From contig JAVYLZ010000001.1 in assembly GCA_038740245.1 (NCBI GenBank), forward strand, positions 29,375 to 64,844: a DNA stretch of 35,470 bases, given 5' to 3'. Positions 18,834-34,859 of this stretch are shown piece after piece. Both the position numbers and the translations under genes were made by a program. Numbering within the stretch: position 1 is the first letter of the stretch; every line of letters begins with the position of its first letter. The notes beneath the pieces are model-generated. The model searched no databases. It saw only the letters and a program-made list of their open reading frames with translations, and was not told the origin of the DNA. The stretch comes from Candidatus Micrarchaeia archaeon (lineage in GTDB: Archaea; Micrarchaeota; Micrarchaeia; CAILAH01).

Positions 18834-18980
18834 AAAGTTAGCTCGCAATTGCTGGTTTTAATCAGTATGCGGCCGTGTTTCCAGTATTTGTTGTCCAGGA
18901 TATATTCTGACATGCCACGCCAAGAAGACTGGAGTTCCCCCAGTATGAAAATTTATATTATTTCCAGTAAATACGGAGTT

Positions 18981-21900
18981 ATGAGGCAGCAGTTCCTATT
19001 GCTGTTATTGTTAGGGTCTGTGTGGGCCTGCGTTGATCTCTCAGAGCCAGGGACATGGGCTGGGAACATCGTTAATGTTTCCCCAAGCAACAAGTCTTTT
19101 TATGTTGTAAATAATACCACTTTATGCAGGCAGGACATTACAATCCCTACCGTACACCCCCTTTTCATAGTAAACCAAAGCAATACCGTGATTGACCTTA
19201 ACGGCTCAACACTGCGCGGTACCGGTCTGGGGAATGGAGTGTTAAGCCGTTATAACGGCACAGTAATTAGGAATGGCGTATTCAGAGACTTCTCAAATGC
19301 AATCGGCATATTTGATATAGACGAAAATAATAGGGACCTTTATTGGTCGTATTCTGAGAATCCAGGCAGTACTGCAGATGCTGCAAATATTGCGTTCGTT
19401 GATCCCGATGGGAACTATATAGTTGGTGGATATGAATCATCCAGTGGCAATAATGCGTGGTTTGTGAAAAAATTTTCCCCGGATGGGGATCAAATTTTCA
19501 ATTTTAGTTACAATCCGAGTACCCTAAGCGATATATTGTTTGGAGGTTGCGTTGATTCTGCTGAGAACTATATCTTTTCCGGCGGTGATACTTCCACAGG
19601 CAATATGCAATGGAGAATTATGAAGTTGTCTGCGGATGGTTCAACCCTCTGGTCACGAGCGTATGACATAAGTTCAGGTAACGACTATGCAGCTTCAATT
19701 GCAGTTGATGGGGATGGGAACTATGTGGCTGCCGGCATAGATCGCGTGCCAGGCAATTTCCAAATGAGGGTTATGAAGATTTCACCCAGTGGCGATTCTA
19801 TTTGGAACTGGACCCTAAACCCAAGCTCCGGGCAGGATTATTTAACTGCAGTTGCAGTTGATCCCGCAGGTGACTATATAGTTGGGGGATATGATAATAC
19901 ACCGGGCAACGCACAGTGGCGCGTTGTAAAAATCTCCCCAAATGGAACTGCCCTATGGAACTGGACCCAGAACCCAAGCGCTGGCTTTGATGCTCTTAAC
20001 TACATAACTGTAGATCTTGAAGGGAGCTATGTTGCAGTGGGATATGATTATTCCCTAGGCAATGCACAGTGGCGCGTTGTAAAAATCTCCCCAAATGGAA
20101 CTGCCCTATGGAACTGGACCCAAAACCCAAGCGCTGGCTTTGATTCTTTAACTTCAGTTGCAATAGATGAGGACGGTAACTATATCATTTTGGGCTACGA
20201 CTTTGTTCTAGGGTATATGAGACCAGTTTTACTAGCGATATCGCCTAATGGTAACTTGCTATGGCAATTTTCAGTAAATACTGGCGGCGCTGGCCTTTTA
20301 TCCTCTGTGGTGGTCGACAGCGAGGGCAATTACCTGGTATGTGGTTATGATTCCATCCCTGGAAACGCGGAATTGTTTATTGCAAAGATTGGCACTGAAA
20401 AGAACGCCCTGTCAGGCATTTTGCTTCAAGACATCTCAATTTATGATTCTAATATGTCAACTTTTCTGTCATTGCCTAATGCGGATGCAACGGCAAACAA
20501 TCTCACATTGGGGTATAATGAAGAAGTGGGCGTTTTGCAATATGAATCCCTGGTTTCTATTGATAACGCGGTATCAAACAGTTACGGGGTTTTGCTAAGA
20601 CCGAATTTCATTTCAGTTAACAGCGGTTCAATCCCTTCTTTTGATGCCCCCGCTAGCATTATCCTCTACGCACCGTTGTGTACAGACCGTAGCGTATACA
20701 CAACTTATAAGGGACCGGGCTTCCCTCGGAGCAGCTCAGAAATAATAAGTTATGATGAGGTGTATATTCCATTAAGCTCTGAATGCAGGTCCCCCACCTC
20801 TTTTATGTTTGAGGTTGGTTCGTTTAGCGGCTATGCGTTGTCTTATGGTGGATGTATTGACCTCTCTGATAACCGGACTTGGGCCGAAAATAAAGTACAT
20901 GCGATAGGAAACGGTTCAATGCTGCATATACTGCGCAACATTACCCTATGCAGGCAGGACATTACAATCCCTACCGTACACCCCCTTTTCATAGTAAACC
21001 AAAGCAATACCGTGATTGACCTTAACGGCTCAACACTGCGCGGTACCGGTCTGGGGAAGGGGGTGTTAAGCCGTTATAACGGGACTGCTATTAGAAACGG
21101 AGTATTTGATAATTTTGGAAATGCGATAAGCATATACGACATAGACGATGGTTCACCCACAGTTGATTTCAAATTGAATTTTACAGATGGTGCGATTTTC
21201 TCAGTGGATGTTGACCAGGACGGAAATTATGTAATAGGTGGCGCATATAATTTCAGTTCTGGCAATCCTGGCCTTTATGTTGCGAAGATGCTTCCAAATG
21301 GCAGCATTGTTTGGGAATGGAAAAGGGGACCTTCCGGCGCGCAGAATTCAATATTGGATGTAGCAATTGATCAGGACGGCAGTTGCATCGCCGTAGGGTT
21401 TGATTCAGCCTCTGGTAGCCAGCGGATGTTTGCTGTTAAGCTTTATGCCAATGGCTCTGAGGGATGGACTTGGGGCAAAGATATTAGTCCAAATGCCGAT
21501 TATGCCACTTCCGTTGCAGTTGATCGCGATGGGAATTATATCTTAGCCGGGATGGATTACTTATCAGGCAGGTATGGTATGAGGGCGATTAAGCTTAGCA
21601 GCAGCGGTTCAGAGCTTTGGAATTGGAGTTTTATTGGTCCACTTGGGAATTATGAAGCTTATGATGTGGCGGTTGATTCGGATAACAACTATATGATAGT
21701 TGGATCAGGGTATAATAGCTCTTTGGGAAATTATGAGATGAGGGCTGTTAAATTAAGCGGGGGAGGAGATACCCTGTTTAATGTTACAATTAATCCGACC
21801 GCAGGATACAACATATTATATTCCGTGGCAGTTGACCAGGATGGTAACTATGTTTGTGTCGGGGTTGCAGATGATGAAGGCGTATTAGTTAAGCTTTATC

Positions 21901-23687
21901 CAAATGGAAGCCTGATCTATATGGGATCTTATGATGTTATGGCCGGAGATGAACAACTTGTTTCGGTTGCAGTGGATCAAGATAACAACTATGTTCTTGG
22001 TGGCGATGGTTGGTCTTCTTCTGGCAACAATGAATGGTTCATCATAAAAACCTTGAAAAATGGGAGAGAGTTGTTTAGTTCTCCCCAGAACTTTGCCCCG
22101 GATGACGATTTTATTAGTAAAGTTGCAGTGGATTTCAACGGTGACATAATTGCAGTTGGGGATGGGACAGACTCTAGCAGCCAGTTTATGGAAGTGTTGA
22201 AGCTTAAAACAAATAAACACAGTCTCTCAGGAGTTTTATTGTCCAACGTTTCGATTTATGACTCAAATATGTCTACGTTTTTGGCTCTGCCCAGCGCAAA
22301 CGCAGAACTAATAAACACGATTGTGGGGTACAATGAAACGGCAGGCAAAGTAAGGTATTCTTCTGTTCCAGCAGCTGGCGGGTTGTTGGCAAATAATATG
22401 ACTATTCTGTTGCGCCCTGAGTTTGTATCACTTGATGAAACTCAAGTTCCATCATTTAGCACCAATGCAGAGATAACACTCTACGTGCCAAACTGCTCAA
22501 CTCCAAATAAGTATGCAGTATACCGATTGGCAGGATTCCCGCAAAGCAGGGATGAAATAATTGCTACTGGAAGCGTTTACTCTTCTACAAGCAAGGTTTG
22601 CCAATCAGAATCTTTGCTTGCATTTGGGGTTACCTCGTTTAGCGGCTATTCTCTCAATGAAACAATAGATGCGCCTCAACCACCCAGTGGAGGATCCGGG
22701 GGGACCAGCAGGAGGCATCTTCTTAGGGTAGCCCCCATAGAGAAGCAATACGTGAGAGTTAATGAGCCGCTATTGCTGCAAGTAACGATTGAAAATACAG
22801 GGGATTATACAGAAAGAAAAATCTCAGTTGGTTTAGAGCCTCAGGATTACATTGTGGCAGCTAATTCAACAATATACTCGCTTGAAAGTGGATATTCGGC
22901 CAATTCCTCGATTGCAATTACCGGTCTTAAGCCAGGCGAATATCTGCTTCGCATTATCGTGAGTAGTGAGAGTGGAGCGGGTGATGAGGCTGGACTTGAG
23001 CTATCGGTGCTTCCGCAGTGCAGTTCAGATTTTCAGTGCAAGTCGGATGAGTATTGCGACGAAGGAGTTTGTTCAAAGCTGAAATGCGAAAAGGGGAGAA
23101 TAGAAAATAACAGGTGCGTATACTATGAATGCATTATGGACTCTGATTGCAGTGGGGGCGGCAGATGCATTGAACACAAATGCATTGAGATAAATTGCAG
23201 CCGCTTTGAGAAGATAGTGGCAAATGAATGCCAACCTCTTAAAGCTGAGATCGGCTTATCGGCAAGCAGTGTAACGGTTGGCGATGATTTTGTAGTGTTT
23301 GTGCTAATAGACGGTGTAAAAACAGCTGGTGTCCCCCTCCTTGTCAAATATCCAGATGGATCTATTGAAAGAATCATTTCAGAACCAGAAGGGGCAAGAG
23401 TACGTGCATTAAATGCAGGCATTTATGTATTTTCAATTGAGGAACTTCCAGAGCATACCAAAAAAGCATATGCGTATGAATTGCCTGCGATAACACCAGA
23501 GCCCGTTTCTGAAACCGTTTCTACGCAAGTACAAACGCCGCAGCCAAAATGCTGCCTTATTGGGATTTGTTTAGAGCTGTTTGGTGTATGCTGGTATTAT
23601 TGGGTATTCGCCGCAATTGCAACACTAGTTGTATTAAGGCTGGTGCTTAAGCAAAATAAAAAGTTGCAAAAATCAAGAAAATACTAG
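18981..23687 (+). CDS. Very large membrane-anchored surface protein: two duplicated modules with beta-propeller-like repeats, Cys-rich EGF-like region, C-terminal TM anchor
   Basis: Signal peptide from ATG 18981; ~51-aa repeats SVAVD.DGNY...G.D; C..D..C repeats; CC..GIC...FGVCWYYW TM tail followed by a basic end. Confidence 0.8.
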   Translation: MRQQFLLLLLLGSVWACVDLSEPGTWAGNIVNVSPSNKSFYVVNNTTLCRQDITIPTVHPLFIVNQSNTVIDLNGSTLRGTGLGNGVLSRYNGTVIRNGVFRDFSNAIGIFDIDENNRDLYWSYSENPGSTADAANIAFVDPDGNYIVGGYESSSGNNAWFVKKFSPDGDQIFNFSYNPSTLSDILFGGCVDSAENYIFSGGDTSTGNMQWRIMKLSADGSTLWSRAYDISSGNDYAASIAVDGDGNYVAAGIDRVPGNFQMRVMKISPSGDSIWNWTLNPSSGQDYLTAVAVDPAGDYIVGGYDNTPGNAQWRVVKISPNGTALWNWTQNPSAGFDALNYITVDLEGSYVAVGYDYSLGNAQWRVVKISPNGTALWNWTQNPSAGFDSLTSVAIDEDGNYIILGYDFVLGYMRPVLLAISPNGNLLWQFSVNTGGAGLLSSVVVDSEGNYLVCGYDSIPGNAELFIAKIGTEKNALSGILLQDISIYDSNMSTFLSLPNADATANNLTLGYNEEVGVLQYESLVSIDNAVSNSYGVLLRPNFISVNSGSIPSFDAPASIILYAPLCTDRSVYTTYKGPGFPRSSSEIISYDEVYIPLSSECRSPTSFMFEVGSFSGYALSYGGCIDLSDNRTWAENKVHAIGNGSMLHILRNITLCRQDITIPTVHPLFIVNQSNTVIDLNGSTLRGTGLGKGVLSRYNGTAIRNGVFDNFGNAISIYDIDDGSPTVDFKLNFTDGAIFSVDVDQDGNYVIGGAYNFSSGNPGLYVAKMLPNGSIVWEWKRGPSGAQNSILDVAIDQDGSCIAVGFDSASGSQRMFAVKLYANGSEGWTWGKDISPNADYATSVAVDRDGNYILAGMDYLSGRYGMRAIKLSSSGSELWNWSFIGPLGNYEAYDVAVDSDNNYMIVGSGYNSSLGNYEMRAVKLSGGGDTLFNVTINPTAGYNILYSVAVDQDGNYVCVGVADDEGVLVKLYPNGSLIYMGSYDVMAGDEQLVSVAVDQDNNYVLGGDGWSSSGNNEWFIIKTLKNGRELFSSPQNFAPDDDFISKVAVDFNGDIIAVGDGTDSSSQFMEVLKLKTNKHSLSGVLLSNVSIYDSNMSTFLALPSANAELINTIVGYNETAGKVRYSSVPAAGGLLANNMTILLRPEFVSLDETQVPSFSTNAEITLYVPNCSTPNKYAVYRLAGFPQSRDEIIATGSVYSSTSKVCQSESLLAFGVTSFSGYSLNETIDAPQPPSGGSGGTSRRHLLRVAPIEKQYVRVNEPLLLQVTIENTGDYTERKISVGLEPQDYIVAANSTIYSLESGYSANSSIAITGLKPGEYLLRIIVSSESGAGDEAGLELSVLPQCSSDFQCKSDEYCDEGVCSKLKCEKGRIENNRCVYYECIMDSDCSGGGRCIEHKCIEINCSRFEKIVANECQPLKAEIGLSASSVTVGDDFVVFVLIDGVKTAGVPLLVKYPDGSIERIISEPEGARVRALNAGIYVFSIEELPEHTKKAYAYELPAITPEPVSETVSTQVQTPQPKCCLIGICLELFGVCWYYWVFAAIATLVVLRLVLKQNKKLQKSRKY
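19123..21058 (+). repeat. Identical 112-bp direct repeat pair (19123-19234 and 20947-21058) inside the large surface protein gene
   Basis: TATGCAGGCAGGACATTACAATCCCTACC...ACCGGTCTGGGGAA reads identically at both sites. Confidence 0.9.
19905..20144 (+). repeat. 87-bp near-identical repeat pair (19905-19991 and 20058-20144; offset 153 bp)
   Basis: GGCAAYGCACAGTGGCGCGTTGTAAAAATCTCC...GCTGGCTTTGAT with two synonymous mismatches. Confidence 0.9.
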
Positions 23688-25167: not shown

Positions 25168-25244
25168 AGTACCACTCCATTTCAATTAGGTATTGGCTGC
25201 ATTAAGCAGCCAACAAATTTAAACCTACTTAGCGAATGCTAATT

Positions 25245-26330
25245 ATGGAAGAGATTTACCTAGGCAAGACAGACCTGCTCATACAGAAGCTTGAAGAGGA
25301 GCTGAAGGGCCCTAAAACTGTCGTCGTCCAGATTGCACCTGCGGTCCGCGTAACGCTCGGTGAGATGTTCAGCCGCCCGTACGGCGAGGATAACACAGGG
25401 AAAGTGATAGGCGCGCTGCAGGCGCTGGGGTTCACGCACGTTGTTGATACCTCAATAGGCGCGGATGCGGCTTCATACTTGGAGGCGCGCGAGCTTGTCA
25501 AGTACCTTGAGAAAGGCGACAATTCAGTGTTCCCAAAGTTCAACTCCTGCTGCATCGGCTGGATGCTATACGTAAAGCGCAGGCACAAGGAGCTGCTGCA
25601 GAAAAGCTCAATATGCCCGGTGCTCTCGCCGCAGCTCGCAACCGGCGCGCTCGTAAAGCTCTATTCCTCAAAAAAGCTCGGCCTTACGCCAGACGACATA
25701 ATCGTTGTTTCAATAATGCCCTGCACGATGAAGAAGGAGGAGGCGCTTGAGCGCTCCCGCGAGGGCCGGCGCCACGTTGACTATGTGATGACCACGGTTG
25801 AGCTTGCCGAGTGGATGAAGAAGCGTGGCATTGATTTCAATTCGGTTAAGGAAGGCTCGCTCAGCCCAATACTGCCCGTCCCCTCACGTCTTGGCGTGGG
25901 GTTCGGCGCAACCGGAGGCGTGTCAGAATCAATAATGGAGACGGCTGCGCATTTCTTGGGCGAGCGCCCGGTGCTCGCGGACCTGCGCAACGACGACCAG
26001 ATATACAGGAAAACCTACCGCATAGGGAAATATGAAGTGAAAATGGCAAAGGTGTTCGGATTCAGGAACCTTGAGGCGGTGCTCAAGGAGATTGAAGGCG
26101 GTAAGTTCTACCATTTTGTAGAGGTTATGCAGTGCGAGTACGGCTGCGTTGGCGGGCCTGGCCAGCCGCAAGCGTCCAGCGAGCAGATAAAGCTGAGGGC
26201 GGCAGGCATGCGCGGGGCATCTATAAAAGCAAAGGCAAACGATGTGCTTGACACCCCGTCACTTAAGGAGATAATTGATGAGGTTCTGGGTGTGCAGGGC
26301 GAGTGCACGCTTAATTTCTCTTGGATGTAA
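25245..26330 (+). CDS. hydA: Minimal (H-domain-only) [FeFe] hydrogenase
   Basis: VQIAPAVRV, P1-like FNSCCIGW, SPQ, P2 IMPCTMKKEE, FGATGGV, P3 EVMQCEYGCVGGPGQP. No N-terminal ferredoxin domains. Start could also be 25236. Confidence 0.9.
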   Translation: MEEIYLGKTDLLIQKLEEELKGPKTVVVQIAPAVRVTLGEMFSRPYGEDNTGKVIGALQALGFTHVVDTSIGADAASYLEARELVKYLEKGDNSVFPKFNSCCIGWMLYVKRRHKELLQKSSICPVLSPQLATGALVKLYSSKKLGLTPDDIIVVSIMPCTMKKEEALERSREGRRHVDYVMTTVELAEWMKKRGIDFNSVKEGSLSPILPVPSRLGVGFGATGGVSESIMETAAHFLGERPVLADLRNDDQIYRKTYRIGKYEVKMAKVFGFRNLEAVLKEIEGGKFYHFVEVMQCEYGCVGGPGQPQASSEQIKLRAAGMRGASIKAKANDVLDTPSLKEIIDEVLGVQGECTLNFSWM

Positions 26331-27367: not shown

Positions 27368-27443
27368 TTAAACACACCGCTAATTAGTTGTGGGTTTCAG
27401 TGTTTAATAAGTTTTCAGGGTGGGTTTCCAGTGACTTTTCGAG

Positions 27444-28034
27444 CTACACTCTCTTGCAAATGTTATAGAAACCGCAGTCCGCGCACTTTTTTAGGTAATC
27501 AGCGGCCTCAGGCATCTCCTCTGTTTTGATGGTTTCTCGCATTGAGCTTAGCACAGCCAAAAATTCCGCATCAGAATAGGCCCCCACCCTCACTTTGATT
27601 AGTCGCTTATCTTTCAAGTATTTTACATATGCACAATATATTTGCAATCCTAAGACTTTTCTCACGAGATATGCCTCTGCAAATAACTGGAATTTTTGGG
27701 TCCGGTATAACATTCGCGGTGCAAATGAATCCTTTGCCTGCAATACGTACGCAGAATTGTTCTTGGTATCAATCATAAGGCAGTCCAGAACAGTCCTGAA
27801 CCCGCTATCACTATCCTCAAGAAATACATCATACTTTTTTTCGTAACCCCTAAATTCATCGGCAATCATTGCCCGCTTTGAATTCGTGTTGAATTTTTTG
27901 TGGAACTCTCTGCCCCTGTATTCTTTAACTGTGGTTGCTTGTGGTATATGAAGTACACGTTCAAAATACAGTATGCGGGGGCAATAAATGTAATTCATCA
28001 GGTCTCGCACGGTAAAATACTGTTCCCAATTCAT
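27444..28034 (-). CDS. cas4: CRISPR-associated Cas4
   Basis: YCPR N-terminal Cys, G..FH, QLFAEAYL, C-terminal KCADCGFYNIC Fe-S motif. Adjacent to cas2. Confidence 0.9.
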   Translation of the reverse strand: MNWEQYFTVRDLMNYIYCPRILYFERVLHIPQATTVKEYRGREFHKKFNTNSKRAMIADEFRGYEKKYDVFLEDSDSGFRTVLDCLMIDTKNNSAYVLQAKDSFAPRMLYRTQKFQLFAEAYLVRKVLGLQIYCAYVKYLKDKRLIKVRVGAYSDAEFLAVLSSMRETIKTEEMPEAADYLKKCADCGFYNICKRV

Positions 28035-28321
28035 TATTCCACCAGATAAAAGTCTTTTTCACGTACACGCTCCTCATCAAGGAACCCAACTATGATTTTG
28101 TTGTGCATACATCCTTCACAAGCAGGTATGAGAAATGCCACGTCAGTTTCTTTATTTAGTGCGTCTTCTATCTCAGATCCAAGCATTTCAGCCTTATTTT
28201 TCGAGAGTGTTCCTAAAAAAGCACTCTTTTGAACACGCAAAAGCCCATAGTTCTTACAAAGCTTAACGACATAATTTCTAACCTTAGTTTCACTAATGTC
28301 ATATATAACCCAGTAGTTCAT
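28034..28321 (-). CDS. cas2: CRISPR-associated Cas2
   Basis: VIYDISE..VR...K.CKNYGL.RVQKSAFLG, C..C. Confidence 0.95.
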   Translation of the reverse strand: MNYWVIYDISETKVRNYVVKLCKNYGLLRVQKSAFLGTLSKNKAEMLGSEIEDALNKETDVAFLIPACEGCMHNKIIVGFLDEERVREKDFYLVE

Positions 28322-28325
28322 CTCA

Positions 28326-29303
28326 TCACCATTTGTGCACAAACGCCCTGAACTTGTAGTTATCATCAGTAAGCGCTCTCGCAATATTTCGCGATTGCCT
28401 AAGAATAAGATCCTTTATTGATGCGCGCCTACCCTCAAATGAGATTTCAGTAGTAAGCCGCTTAAGTACCTCACTCAATATCTTATCGCGACCGCTTTTT
28501 GAAAGCCTACCGCCTTCAAAATCTTCTTCGGTTGCCATCTTTCTTGAGAAAATAGTTATAACCGCACGATCGACTATAACCGGCCTAAAGTTTTCTATCA
28601 GATCAAGAACCATTGAGGGTTTTCCATAGCGATCTTTGTGATAAAAACCTAAATAGGGATCTAGACCTGAGATAATACATGCCCGCTCCACTTCGGAATA
28701 CAATATACCGTATCCGTAGTTAAGGAAAGCATTTGTCAAATTATCTCCTTTTTTATCCCTATTCCCAAGAGGCATTAATTCAGATAGTGCATCCCAATAT
28801 AAGCTGCCACAGTAGCCCTCAATCCCCAGTAAAGTTTCACCCACTTTAGCAAGGTTCAGTTCTAACAGATCTATCTTCTCAACCTGTGAAATTATTATAT
28901 TGGCGTTTCGAGTGACTTTCTCATTTGGTCTTTCCTTGGCAAGTGCCTTAAGGAGGTATGCCTGGTTTTTCACTTTTGCGTCGATTATTGATTTGATTAT
29001 TCGTGCGCCGGTTGGTGTTGCACTTGCCTCAAGCTGTTTTTTCCGTATTAGGGTCGTGCCACCCAGTTTACACGGGTATGTTCTCGCAAGCGGTGTACCT
29101 CTCCAGTCAAGGTAAGTAATATCTATATCGTGCTCCATCGCAAGCTCGATCGCACCCATGGAAATTGATGAAGCCCTTGCAATTAAAATTTGCTCTACCT
29201 TTTCAGCTGCAAATTCTTCCTCGGGCTTTTCAGGAATGCGCACGTAAAATCGTTCGGAGCGACGGCCTATGAAGGCGGCGTAGTCATTAATCACTAATTC
29301 CAT
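28326..29303 (-). CDS. cas1: CRISPR-associated Cas1
   Basis: LLGIEG, NAFLNYGYGILY, GLDPYLGFYH, SMVLDLIENFRPVIVDR. Confidence 0.97.
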   Translation of the reverse strand: MELVINDYAAFIGRRSERFYVRIPEKPEEEFAAEKVEQILIARASSISMGAIELAMEHDIDITYLDWRGTPLARTYPCKLGGTTLIRKKQLEASATPTGARIIKSIIDAKVKNQAYLLKALAKERPNEKVTRNANIIISQVEKIDLLELNLAKVGETLLGIEGYCGSLYWDALSELMPLGNRDKKGDNLTNAFLNYGYGILYSEVERACIISGLDPYLGFYHKDRYGKPSMVLDLIENFRPVIVDRAVITIFSRKMATEEDFEGGRLSKSGRDKILSEVLKRLTTEISFEGRRASIKDLILRQSRNIARALTDDNYKFRAFVHKW

Positions 29304-29354
29304 ATGGAAACATCAAATGCAAAAATTAAATACTCACTTATACTAAAGTATAAC
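29304..29354. promoter_or_regulatory. Divergent promoter region between cas1 and cas12f
   Basis: 51-bp AT-rich gap containing AATTAAAT and the inverted repeat TTATACT-AA-AGTATAA (29338-29353). Confidence 0.55.
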
Positions 29355-31187
29355 ATGCTCGCATTCAAGCTTAAGCTTAACCCGTCCTCAGAACAGCAGG
29401 CTCAGCTGGATTTAATATTTAGGAAGTGGGCGTATATGGCAAGCCGTGCCGCAAAGTTTGAAAAGAAGAGATGGAAGAAAGAAGTTGATTCAATGAGTTC
29501 AACTACCTCTGGTTTTGGGAAAACCCAGTTGGTCCACAAGATATTTGATGACATTGAGGCAGCCAAAAAGGGGATGGAGCACCAAAAACAGCGCCTGGAA
29601 TGGGGTTTGAGGAAAGACGAGCTACGGCTTCAGGATTACAAGTTGCTTATTGACGATGAATCTGCCAGGGAATATAAGCCCGGTGGCAGAGGGTCGTTTA
29701 GGATGGCCGGCAGGGGAATCGGGACTTATAAAACCTTGAAAGAATGGCAATCAGAGTACGAAAAGCAGGAGAGACGCATTTACAAAGTCAAGAAAACGCT
29801 TGACAAAATAACGCGTGTCTTGGAGGGGAAGCAACCGGTGCAGTTTAAGCCTACTAGAATAACGCTCTGGAATACAGTTTACTCTTTGGATTTCGCTAAT
29901 AAACTCCTAGAGCTTTCATTGCTTAAAGATTCAAAGATGTCAATTCCATTTGTTACCGCACCATATGCTTTAAGAGGCAAATCAAACAAAAATAGCTCAG
30001 AATTTATCGAAGAATCTTTGCTGAACTTCGTTAAGTTTGCACTGCACACTGGATATCTGTATGGGTTTTCATCATCGGAAAAAGCAAAATTGCGCTCGAA
30101 TAAGCCTGAATATGCTGAGAAAAAACTAAAAATAATCTCGTCAAAGCGTGATAAGATCAAGAATAAGTTTCCAAAATTCTTCAATAAGGTAATGAAGCGT
30201 GGGATCTCTCAAGAAGAGCAGGAAATCTTGCTTAAGGTATTAGATGATATAGTAGCCGGCAATGATGTTTCCACTAACAATGCTTACCAAAACCTGCTGG
30301 AACAAATGTCACGAAATATTCTTGCGGGTGATATTGAGTTTAGGCCGTTAAAATACCCAATATTAATTAGAAAGCCACTCCCCTCAAAAAAATACAAGAA
30401 GCTTAAAAACCTAAAGCCGCAAGAGTGGAAGTACTACCTTCAGCTTTCATATGAGCCATTCAGGCAGGGTACTGTTCCAGAAAAAACAATAATGGGCATC
30501 GATCGGGGTATAAGGCATTTGGTTGCCGTTTCAGTATTTGATCCGAAATCCGGTAAATTCATATTAAACAAGCTTATAGACAATCCCGTAAGGGGGTGGA
30601 AAATAAAGTTGCGTGCGCTTAAGGCTCATATCCGAAATAGGGAGCGACGGCTACGTGCCAAAAAAAATATCCATATTAAGGAAAATCAGGCAAAGAAAAG
30701 CCTAAGATCACTAAGAAATAAAATCAGAAATTATACCCACGAGATTTCACGTGTGATAGTGAATGATGCCAAAAGGTTAAACGCAGCAATAGTTTTTGAG
30801 GATCTTTTTGATGTAAAGCGCAGCGGTCGCAAAAAAAGCAAGTTTACCAAGAACCTTGATTATACGCTTAGCCTATTTGACTATGGGCAAATATATCGTA
30901 TGATAAAGTACAAGGCAATCAAGGAGGGGATCCAAGTCTATAAGGTAAAGCCAGATTACACAAGTCAAAGGTGCGCAAAGTGTCTTCTTACTGGATTTAG
31001 CCAAAGCACTTACATAAGGGGGGTGCCGCGTAAGGGAGACAAGCATAAAATAAACTCAAAGGTTGGAGTGTGCAAAAATTGTTGCGGATCAGGCAAAGAT
31101 TACACTATTGACGCAGACCTGAATGCTGCACGTGTGATCGCCCTTTGCAAATTCAAAAACCTTAATAATCCTCAGCCAGATAATTAA
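29355..31187 (+). CDS. cas12f: Type V-F effector nuclease, Cas12f2 (Cas14b)-like, ~610 aa
   Basis: N-term MLAFKLKLNP..EQ...LD..F.KWA; FKPTRITL; KYPILIRKP; EWKYYLQ; RuvC-I MGIDRG, RuvC-II VFEDL, Zn-finger TSQRCAKC...CKNC, RuvC-III IDADLNAARVIA. Flanked by cas1/2/4 and an array. Confidence 0.92.
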   Translation: MLAFKLKLNPSSEQQAQLDLIFRKWAYMASRAAKFEKKRWKKEVDSMSSTTSGFGKTQLVHKIFDDIEAAKKGMEHQKQRLEWGLRKDELRLQDYKLLIDDESAREYKPGGRGSFRMAGRGIGTYKTLKEWQSEYEKQERRIYKVKKTLDKITRVLEGKQPVQFKPTRITLWNTVYSLDFANKLLELSLLKDSKMSIPFVTAPYALRGKSNKNSSEFIEESLLNFVKFALHTGYLYGFSSSEKAKLRSNKPEYAEKKLKIISSKRDKIKNKFPKFFNKVMKRGISQEEQEILLKVLDDIVAGNDVSTNNAYQNLLEQMSRNILAGDIEFRPLKYPILIRKPLPSKKYKKLKNLKPQEWKYYLQLSYEPFRQGTVPEKTIMGIDRGIRHLVAVSVFDPKSGKFILNKLIDNPVRGWKIKLRALKAHIRNRERRLRAKKNIHIKENQAKKSLRSLRNKIRNYTHEISRVIVNDAKRLNAAIVFEDLFDVKRSGRKKSKFTKNLDYTLSLFDYGQIYRMIKYKAIKEGIQVYKVKPDYTSQRCAKCLLTGFSQSTYIRGVPRKGDKHKINSKVGVCKNCCGSGKDYTIDADLNAARVIALCKFKNLNNPQPDN

Positions 31188-31194
31188 TCATGCA

Positions 31195-31445
31195 GTACAC
31201 GCCAATGCGTGTACGGTGTTACACTACTAGGTCAGAGCGCTATATAGTGAGCGTAAAAAACCTGTGGATGCCATTCCCTATATGGGACGTGGCAGATATG
31301 GCCCGTTGCAGGCCACCTGGGTCCATAAGTTCCCGCATTGGGTTCTAACGGCCCGATTGCTCTTTGGTTCAAAGCTTAGCCGCTCGGTGGGTCTTTATAA
31401 ATGCTAATGCAATTTATGGTCCGCGTGCGGCGCTCTGCAATAAGT
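31195..31445 (+). ncRNA. Putative tracrRNA of the Cas12f system (ends approximate)
   Basis: Hairpin GTACACGC-CAAT-GCGTGTAC (31195-31214); loop-displayed GTTGCA (31305-31310) complementary to the repeat 3' end; TTGCTCTTTG (31357-31366) and GCTCTGCAAT (31432-31441) complementary to the middle and 5' end of the repeat. Confidence 0.75.
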
Positions 31446-31490
31446 GACTTTCTAGTGATGCATAAGCTCTAAAATAGTGCATTTTTGGCT

Positions 31491-31974
31491 ATTGCAGAGC
31501 CCGAATAGACAAAGAGTGAGATGCAACTTAAATATCGTGATGTGATAAGGGCGATTGGCTACTTTATGTAATTGCAGAGCCCGAATAGACAAAGAGTGAG
31601 ATGCAACACGGTGTTTGGACACCTATGGAAAGCAACCGTGCCCACAATTGCAGAGCCCGAATAGACAAAGAGTGAGATGCAACGGAGGTTTCCCCATCCA
31701 TATAGTAGCCTTGATAACTTATTGCAGAGCCCGAATAGACAAAGAGTGAGATGCAACCCAGCCGATTACTTCATCTGGTCATACATTAGGAGGATTGCAG
31801 AGCCCGAATAGACAAAGAGTGAGATGCAACCTCATCGGCAGTCTTGCTATGGGCGTAATAAGCATATTGCAGAGCCCGAATAGACAAAGAGTGAGATGCA
31901 ACTCGCCATGAGGTTACCTGATGACGTGCCAGTTTCGATTGCAGAGCCCGAATAGACAAAGAGTGAGATGCAAG
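31491..31974 (+). CRISPR. CRISPR array: 7 x 37-bp repeats ATTGCAGAGCCCGAATAGACAAAGAGTGAGATGCAAC, 6 spacers (43, 39, 37, 36, 35, 35 bp)
   Basis: Repeats start at 31491, 31571, 31647, 31721, 31794, 31866 and 31938. The last repeat ends ...GCAAG (degenerate trailer). The sequence resembles Cas14-type repeats. Confidence 0.99.
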
Positions 31975-34428: not shown

Positions 34429-34563
34429 TTTTTTTGGGGCCAAGCCCTTTTAGGCATCCCAAAAAGGGCGCCTTGTTTTTTTGGGGTCAAGCCCTTTTAG
34501 GCATCCCAAAAAGGGCGCCTTGTTTTTTTGGGGTCAAGCCCTTTTAGGCATCCCAAAAAGGGC
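34429..34563. repeat. 47-bp tandem repeat (~2.9 copies) inside the tRNA T-loop intron
   Basis: TTTTTTTGGGGTCAAGCCCTTTTAGGCATCCCAAAAAGGGCGCCTTG at 34429, 34476 and 34523 (partial), with one mismatch. Confidence 0.95.
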
Positions 34564-34596
34564 TGTTCGAACCGCTGTCTGGAGGTCTCTCCTGTG

Positions 34597-34675
34597 GGGC
34601 GCATCCGCCCCCACACCCCCGGTAATTTCGCTTACGCGAAATTGTTGGGTTGGGCGCATCCGCCCCCACACCCCC
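34597..34675. repeat. Two identical 24-bp GC-rich hairpin motifs inside the anticodon intron
   Basis: GGGCGCATCCGCCCCCACACCCCC at 34597-34620 and 34652-34675. Confidence 0.9.
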
Positions 34676-34859
34676 CTCAGTGAATTTGAGGTTGCGAAGG
34701 GCCTTGCAAACTGGCGTTTGCTGGCCACACGTGCAGAACACGTGTTGGACCGCAGGCTTCCTTCGTCCAGAGCCTCCCATCCTTGACCACTAGACGACGG
34801 GGCTATCAGCACACTTTAAGGCCATATCATTTTTAATTGTTGCTATTGAGTTTGTGGAC

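Follow-up and report, generated by a model that had tools for sequence, protein, structure and literature searches.

A probable type V-F (Cas12f2/Cas14b) CRISPR-Cas locus with a predicted tracrRNA in a Micrarchaeia archaeon

Locus organization and cas genes

A 35,470-nt stretch from a Candidatus Micrarchaeia archaeon (assembly GCA_038740245.1, contig JAVYLZ010000001.1, positions 29,375 to 64,844; hereafter the window) carries at positions 27444-31974 the genes of a compact CRISPR-Cas system centred on a Cas12f2 (Cas14b-type) effector. On the minus strand lie cas4 (27444-28034, 196 aa), cas2 (28034-28321, 95 aa) and cas1 (28326-29303, 325 aa), which make up an adaptation module; all three are matched by Pfam, NCBIfam and PADLOC profiles and score above the Pfam and NCBIfam family cut-offs. 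The effector gene (29355-31187, plus strand, 610 aa, with RuvC and C4 zinc finger) stands head-to-head with them across 51 nt (29304-29354, no strand assigned), whose central AT-rich TATA-like element suggests that this region is probably a bidirectional promoter. Downstream of the effector a 303-nt gap (31188-31490) contains a predicted trans-activating CRISPR RNA (tracrRNA; 31188-31392, plus strand, approximate ends) and a leader (31394-31490, plus strand), followed by an array of seven 37-nt repeats and six spacers (31491-31974, plus strand). An alternative effector frame of 627 aa would begin at 29304; the homologues and the protein collection begin at 29355.

An initial annotation, made from the letters alone, had described cas4-cas2-cas1 head-to-head with a protein of about 610 aa bearing three RuvC motifs and a zinc finger, then a structured gap of about 300 bp and a seven-repeat array, and had called the whole a type V-F, Cas12f2/Cas14b-like system with its own adaptation module. 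Open reading frames, profiles and repeat comparison bear out each of these elements, and the family assignment agrees with the PADLOC match and the tree described below. Residues E162, H222 and E237 of Cas1 are invariant in all seven Cas1 proteins aligned from the effector clade. The divergent layout recurs in two of 30 clade loci, L002 and L039, with intergenic spacers of similar size (51-63 nt); in the remaining clade loci cas1-2-4 are either co-directional and upstream, or lie on the downstream side of the array, or do not appear in the DNA fetched.

Effector family and phylogeny

The effector consists of an N-terminal WED/REC region (residues ~1-370), a RuvC domain with the catalytic residues D383, E482 and D588 (motifs GIDRG at 381, VFEDL at 480 and DADLNAA at 586), and a zinc finger formed by C540/C543 (CAKC, 540) and C573/C576 (CKNC, 573). 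Across 17 clade sequences D383, E482, D588, C540, C543 and C573 are invariant. At 610 aa the protein falls within the 400-700 aa expected of a lone type V-F effector. The PADLOC Cas14b profile spans residues 2-606 (E 1e-109) and a second PADLOC V-F model matches at 1e-99, whereas no other Cas12 model does better than 2e-25. The NCBIfam Cas12f2 model (NF049972) gave 166.5 bits against a cut-off of 450, with a match mainly to the C-terminal half; from its length and match range this model appears to represent the Mi1/Mi2 branch discussed below. The NCBIfam guided_TnpB cut-off was just passed (110 versus 100 bits), and a weak OrfB_IS605 similarity was detected with Pfam.

Among 7999 candidates scored, only seven proteins, including the effector itself, matched at E <= 1e-10, the closest relative being P0002 (48% identical). 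When 1.84 billion representatives were searched with a profile, 21 matches reached E <= 1e-30, which indicates that the clade containing AuCas12f2 and Cas14b.10 is small. All seven full-length effector matches in named genomes were members of this clade, and an array was visible in the fetched DNA of five. The gene is present in single copy in its genome.

In a FastTree phylogeny of 73 rows, which carried long-branch warnings, the effector pairs with the product of L039 (the gene of P0002) with 100% support, inside a 23-row clade of mostly ~600-aa proteins that is itself supported at 100% and is separate from the short TnpB-like rows. A long branch leads to the window effector. The same 23-row clade includes L040, the locus of a cluster-mate of Cas14b.10. 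A different clade (96% support) holds Mi1Cas12f2 (P0041) and Mi2Cas12f2 (represented by P0035, whose cluster contains RLG21245.1). By profile and tree placement the effector is thus a Cas12f2/Cas14b protein of the ~600-aa AuCas12f2/Cas14b.10 branch, distinct from every characterised enzyme, and the label 'Cas12f2' spans two branches, the ~600-aa one and that of Mi1/Mi2. This qualifies the earlier statement that the ~600-aa members form Cas12f2. We prefer the name Cas12f2 because the 2025 classification gives 'Cas14' to the type VII effector. Several effectors of the clade (L007, L042/L043, L044, L046 and L047) are 710-843 aa long, with insertions in the N-terminal lobe and within the zinc-finger region.

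Comparison with known enzymes and predicted structure

The nearest assayed counterpart by family is AuCas12f2 (Cas14b18, 603 aa, RJP56748.1; PMC7229846), which is of the same length class, shows the clade's N-terminal and pre-RuvC motifs in its first 400 residues when compared by eye and unaligned, and likewise has a locus composed of effector, putative tracrRNA and array (PMC7229846). It differs in its bacterial host label, its C3H-like zinc site (C4 in the window effector) and its 5' tracrRNA; the window effector sits on a long branch of its own together with P0002/L039. Cas14b.10 (QBM01473.1) shares 36% of its residues with the effector across 608 aa (E 7e-102), and the tracrRNA core and type of repeat seen in the window recur in L040; unlike the window, the Cas14b.10-type locus places cas1-2-4 downstream of the array. 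We found no functional data for Cas14b.10 in the literature searched. The protein is not one of the Cas12f2s already characterised; identity to one of these, according to the initial annotation, would have removed novelty but not the call.

Mi1Cas12f2 (Cas14b4) and Mi2Cas12f2 (Cas14b17) share with the window effector the subtype name, RuvC and zinc finger and have T-rich protospacer adjacent motifs (PAMs), and a cas1/2/4 module is also present at the Mi1Cas12f2 locus, for which it was shown. However, only the RuvC half of Mi1 and Mi2 aligns with the window effector (28% and 32% identity). A sequence comparison of the effector with the PDB gave 11 matches at E <= 0.01, and the fourth reference, Un1Cas12f1 (Cas14a1; PDB 7C7L, 7L48), is missing from them.

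An AlphaFold model of the effector (predicted local distance difference test, pLDDT, 85) was closest in a fold search to Cas12f1 structures (Z 17.4, root-mean-square deviation (rmsd) 5.1, 336 residues aligned), with Un1Cas12f1 itself at Z 15.4, rmsd 16.0 and 300 aligned; no Cas12f2-labelled entry occurs among the listed PDB sequence or fold matches. Un1Cas12f1 is a 529-aa protein that works as an obligate asymmetric dimer and has a REC1 of ~170 aa, whereas the N-terminal lobe of monomeric Cas12 proteins is reported at ~300 aa. In the effector model ~320 residues separate the first and last WED strands of this lobe, but the REC2-like hairpin (~65 aa) is as short as in Cas12f1, and the domain sizes are therefore mixed as to oligomeric state. 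A homodimer prediction for residues 1-372 scored 0.00, which counts neither for nor against a dimer. Compared with AuCas12f2, the sub-branch of the window and P0002/L039 has a shorter, remodelled N-terminal lobe. The N-terminal half of the window effector is 43% identical to that of L039 and 27-37% identical to those of other clade members.

A predicted tracrRNA that pairs the repeat at two sites

The gap at 31188-31490 folds better than shuffled sequences (z -2.2; one shuffle in 100 as good), is conserved across the clade loci, and has no match in Rfam. The RNAalifold consensus of 13 loci has a hairpin of 5 bp, whose loop hardly varies, and a stem in two parts; nine of the 16 consensus stem pairs show double-sided changes. 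In the window the predicted RNA comprises variant 5' hairpins (~31190-31290), a stem-loop (31299-31315), a stem (31319-31354) and a terminal hairpin (31379-31392). The loop at 31305-31310 is the complement of repeat nucleotides 32-37, and just past the stem an anti-repeat (31357-31370) pairs repeat nucleotides 20-29 and 13-16.

Pairing between anti-repeat and repeat was compared in the window and 14 other loci having both gap and repeat, drawn from the 30 clade loci; near-duplicates, loci without repeats, L005 (degenerate repeats) and L053 were left out. A locus's own repeat was the best partner of its anti-repeat in ten of the 15 loci, second in four and fourth in one; the window's own repeat ranks second, behind a repeat that differs by one base. 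The mean duplex energy was -14.6 kcal/mol for own repeats versus -7.6 kcal/mol otherwise, and none of 100,000 permutations did as well. In Un1Cas12f1 the Stem 3 loop forms the first anti-repeat:repeat duplex (AR:R1), followed by a long Stem 4 and then AR:R2 (PMC8053092), the same plan of loop-to-repeat-end duplex, long stem and second anti-repeat as in the window. Its repeat matches that of the window at 28 of 37 positions and in orientation, compared by eye (PMC7229846). On sequence grounds, then, the gap encodes a predicted tracrRNA that would pair with the repeat at two sites, as that of Un1Cas12f1 does. These results are in line with two further points of the initial annotation, that the effector would need a tracrRNA and that the repeat resembles the Cas14a1 type. 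Neither a tracrRNA map nor a structure of any Cas12f2 was found in the literature searched, which excluded patents and most subscription papers.

Each of the 15 loci has a TATA-like box 68-102 nt ahead of its array, at 97 nt in the window (31394-31401). Such boxes also occur in other archaeal leaders (PMC13748974), and the one in the window may serve as the promoter of the array. A sigma-70 promoter scan, a model ill-suited to archaea, performed at chance level.

The 5' part of the window tracrRNA departs from the clade consensus and resembles that of L039 only (69 of 95 nt identical, versus 47-57 in five others). A remodelled N-terminal lobe and a variant 5' tracrRNA are common to the window and one relative. 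The relationship with L002 is different: compared with the window it has an 82% identical Cas1 N-terminus, 104 of 119 nt of the 3' tracrRNA and 36 of 37 repeat positions, and a similar leader, but not a similar 5' tracrRNA, and its effector is only 40% identical. Topology tests rejected a window+L002 pair for the effector (p 2e-6) and did not reject window+L002+L039 (p 0.15), and for the backbone DNA window+L039 was not rejected (p 0.48); because these two groupings stand, one topology fits both effector and backbone. The pattern suggests that a cassette of effector and 5' tracrRNA may have been exchanged between loci, although the topology tests do not force such an exchange. The L002 sequence (L002:1-2496, corresponding to window 29085-31527) is a 2.5-kb contig labelled Thermotoga, a bacterial label that may be a binning error.

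The CRISPR array and its spacers

Only the seventh repeat departs from the other six, which are all alike, and it does so at its final base alone. We place the leader on the gap side because the last repeat is degenerate, marking the trailer end; a degenerate last repeat is also seen in the relative L006. From the leader end the spacers measure 43, 39, 37, 36, 35 and 35 nt. This steady shortening away from the leader (31528-31937) has no clear counterpart in the arrays of seven relatives. A 24-mer periodicity scan identified no other array in the 0.69-Mb genome.

No spacer self-target was found in the genome, and exact 19-20-mer scans of viral contigs with all six spacers (two of them scanned twice) gave no accepted protospacer; one candidate target of spacer 4 (L112), matching at 24 of 36 nt, was rejected as chance. 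The whole array matched only two phage records (E 2) and no plasmid, and against 401 genomes of the phylum it gave only matches that overlapped the repeat or reached at most 63%. The PAM is unreadable from the spacers because none of these searches of viral contigs, phages, plasmids and genomes returned a protospacer; spacer matching was one of the routes to the PAM proposed in the initial annotation. A same-family genome carries an orphan five-repeat array with a near-identical repeat (L120, G003:C21:5764-6091), located between an acetyltransferase-like and an MCM-like gene; there the AT-rich flank is on the other side of the array, and a search with the window's Cas1 found no Cas1 in that genome.

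A variant Cas4 active site

Canonical Cas4 proteins contain a motif II aspartate, a motif III E-x-K, a QxxxY helix and four Fe-S cysteines, and require the motif III glutamate (PMC8610317). The window Cas4 keeps the cysteines (C18, C184, C187 and C193) together with H45, D84 and K101, but its motif III reads Q99-x-K101 and its helix Q116xxxE120. In an alignment of 26 rows (16 homologue matches including the window and ten locus proteins, with one duplicate dropped), motif III has Q in 21 rows and E in five, and QxxxE occurs in all 26. The protein is a Cas4 by profile that departs from the canonical nuclease motifs, and the alignment points to a clade-wide active-site variant. Relocated carboxylates are known from other PD-(D/E)xK nucleases, and our guess is that the catalytic carboxylate may now sit in the QxxxE helix instead of motif III; the rival explanation is an inactive or structural Cas4. 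Single-sequence folding reached a pLDDT of only 31 and gave no usable model, and no paper on this variant was among the titles listed in the literature searched. Nine Cas4 homologues (P0176-P0184) lack the Fe-S cysteines, and L043, L044 and L047 lack the C-terminal ones.

Maintenance, host and distribution

The host genome (0.69 Mb, 81% complete) has a RadA 59-70% identical to those of four Micrarchaeota-labelled genomes, which points to a DPANN archaeon, probably of the Micrarchaeota, but is suggestive only, RadA being conserved. The locus was present in a hot-spring sequencing run (X1), one of three runs listed, from one study and possibly the source of the window. The X1 contigs do not extend over the array, and no RNA run with the locus was listed, which bears neither way on expression. 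Comparison of the window with contigs of this run revealed 13 coding differences in the cas genes, 12 of which are synonymous, and the cas genes therefore look maintained. All four cas frames are open with invariant catalytic residues. The description of the system in the initial annotation as an intact and probably active ortholog is borne out as to intactness and probable maintenance.

The locus was not found in the eight other genomes of the order that were searched (61-93% complete), and effectors of the clade were found in six of 401 genomes of the phylum, including that of the window. The cas genes have a GC content of 37-43% and a GC content at third codon positions (GC3) of 0.34-0.47, against 52% for the genome and a GC3 of 0.74 for radA. 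Four relatives match the sequence upstream of radA to ~27433 and then carry different genes. Given this patchy distribution, the variable genes after ~27433 and the low GC of the cas genes, the locus was likely acquired horizontally or lost patchily in relatives. In the region upstream of radA (27368-27433) the relatives retain a conserved motif of 9 nt together with a TATA-like element, and the sharp end of this region marks a variable insertion site.

The same features could describe a dormant or decaying island, in which a system of this family came by horizontal transfer and has since ceased both to take up spacers and to cut. The failure to find it in the eight other genomes, its deviating GC, an array with only six spacers and none matched to a target, and the orphan array of the same-family genome would fit such an island. 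Yet the four frames are open and retain their catalytic residues, six repeats show no difference, the tracrRNA pairings are preserved, the strain differences are nearly all synonymous, and low GC3 (0.41-0.50) is found in other host genes as well; we consider decay improbable.

The amino acid composition of the long open reading frames does not support strong thermophily: the IVYWREL fraction is 0.404, which we take to correspond to roughly 45 °C, and the charged-versus-polar bias (CvP) is 0.05. Cas12f2 proteins have been predicted to tend to thermostability, though not studied for it (10.1101/2023.03.27.534365).

Proposed mechanism and alternative readings

The locus most likely encodes an intact type V-F (Cas12f2/Cas14b) adaptive immune system of the ~600-aa AuCas12f2/Cas14b.10 branch, a reading to which we give a probability of about 85%. 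The sequence itself shows the gene content, the family placement, the residues for catalysis and zinc binding, co-variation of the predicted tracrRNA with the repeat, and a synonymous bias in strain variation. Several points weigh against it. No protospacer was found; the effector stays under the NCBIfam Cas12f2 cut-off (166 versus 450 bits); and its N-terminal half is only 27-37% identical to the rest of the clade, the nearest tested enzyme being perhaps ~35-40% identical by analogy with clade averages, unaligned. In addition, the motif III glutamate required by other Cas4s is missing from this one, a single study with contig depth under 5 supplies the strain differences, and the statistics of the duplex test ignore the relatedness of the loci.

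In such a system Cas1-Cas2, possibly with Cas4, transcribed divergently from the effector, would add spacers of 35-43 nt at the gap-proximal end of the array, which would be transcribed from the TATA-like box. The tracrRNA would hold each repeat twice, by its hairpin loop on the last 6 nt and by a 10+4-bp duplex on the middle. The effector-RNA complex, for which both a homodimer and a monomer were considered, would read a 5' PAM, unwind double-stranded DNA (dsDNA) and cut it PAM-distally near position 21-23 with a single RuvC site; by analogy with Un1Cas12f1, collateral cleavage of single-stranded DNA (ssDNA) is likely. Archaea lack RNase III (PMC12669027), which thus does not account for the maturation of the CRISPR RNA.

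AuCas12f2 in lysate cut dsDNA after positions 21/23 with a 5' TTTR PAM (PMC7229846), and the PAMs of Mi1Cas12f2 and Mi2Cas12f2 in lysate were TTAT and TTR. By analogy the window PAM is likely T-rich, an extrapolation that is loose because the PAM-side, N-terminal half of the effector has diverged so far from other clade members. The earlier remark that the PAM may be uncharacterised is thus true of the window effector, but not of its relatives, whose T-rich PAMs (TTTR, TTAT, TTR) have been reported.

A broader joint reading seems doubtful to us and is offered tentatively. It would make the AuCas12f2/Cas14b.10 branch a type V lineage apart from Mi1/Mi2, with an enlarged N-terminal lobe and acting as a monomer on a Cas12f1-like tracrRNA; within it, the sub-branch of the window, with its remodelled lobe on the PAM side and a 5' tracrRNA not shared by the rest, would combine possible cassette exchange, a PAM unlike TTTR, activity at elevated temperature and a Cas4 carboxylate moved to the QxxxE helix. 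If true, this monomeric branch would be an intermediate between dimeric Cas12f1 and the large monomeric Cas12 proteins.

The effector might instead bind DNA mainly without cutting dsDNA, targeting ssDNA or blocking transcription like some type V variants. In the published accounts none of the tested Cas14-family enzymes, three Cas12f2s included, gave plasmid interference in E. coli, and the cleavage signal of Mi1 under native expression was only 2.5-fold; the window effector is, moreover, on a long branch. With the three RuvC acids invariant across the 17 clade sequences and dsDNA cleavage by the clade-mate AuCas12f2 in lysate, we regard such a role as very improbable. That the effector is an IS200/IS605 TnpB lying by chance beside a CRISPR array, an outcome that the initial annotation had named as refuting its call, is scarcely credible despite the narrowly passed guided_TnpB cut-off and the OrfB_IS605 similarity: it is a single-copy 610-aa protein among cas genes and an array, whereas a TnpB has about 400 aa, belongs to an insertion sequence with a tnpA neighbour or repeated copies, and is guided without a CRISPR array; its clade retains tracrRNA and array in three different gene orders, and the co-variation of the gap RNA with the repeat and the tree, which keeps it apart from the short TnpB-like rows, rule the identity out, barring alignment artefacts. 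A Pfam scan of 16 proteins of the window found no transposase; insertion sequence (IS) ends were not searched.

Preferring an intact type V-F immune locus, we note that DPANN archaea are already known to have type V-F2 loci that include cas1/2/4, and that PAM data exist for three Cas12f2s. What is new here, as read from sequence, is a divergent Cas12f2 member with a mapped tracrRNA. Within type V-F, Cas12f2 has received the least study: the literature searched contains one functional study, covering three enzymes in lysate assays with whole loci and a 'putative' tracrRNA. A complete locus, a hot-spring run that contains it and a tracrRNA mapped from sequence open the way to direct study of the PAM, of a single-guide design, of whether the effector is a monomer or a dimer, and of type V-F spacer acquisition. 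The locus leaves CRISPR classification unchanged. The proposal that it might yield a miniature genome editor appears weak, the protein at 610 aa being larger than the Cas12f1 editors and the tested Cas14-family enzymes having failed to interfere with plasmids in E. coli; until it is shown to be active, its use for editing is doubtful.

Other features of the window

Elsewhere in the window, 18849-23687 (plus strand) encodes a 1612-aa protein with internal repeats of ~51 aa, weak DUF5122 beta-propeller and CARDB matches and a GC3 of 0.41, a probable surface protein. The gene at 25236-26330 (plus strand) contains a [FeFe]-hydrogenase large-subunit C-terminal domain (Pfam E 3e-67); [FeFe]-hydrogenases have been reported in DPANN archaea. 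Downstream of the array, an intergenic region contains a 47-nt unit repeated three times in tandem, with a palindrome inside each copy (34429-34569), followed by a duplicated GC-rich element (34592-34680).

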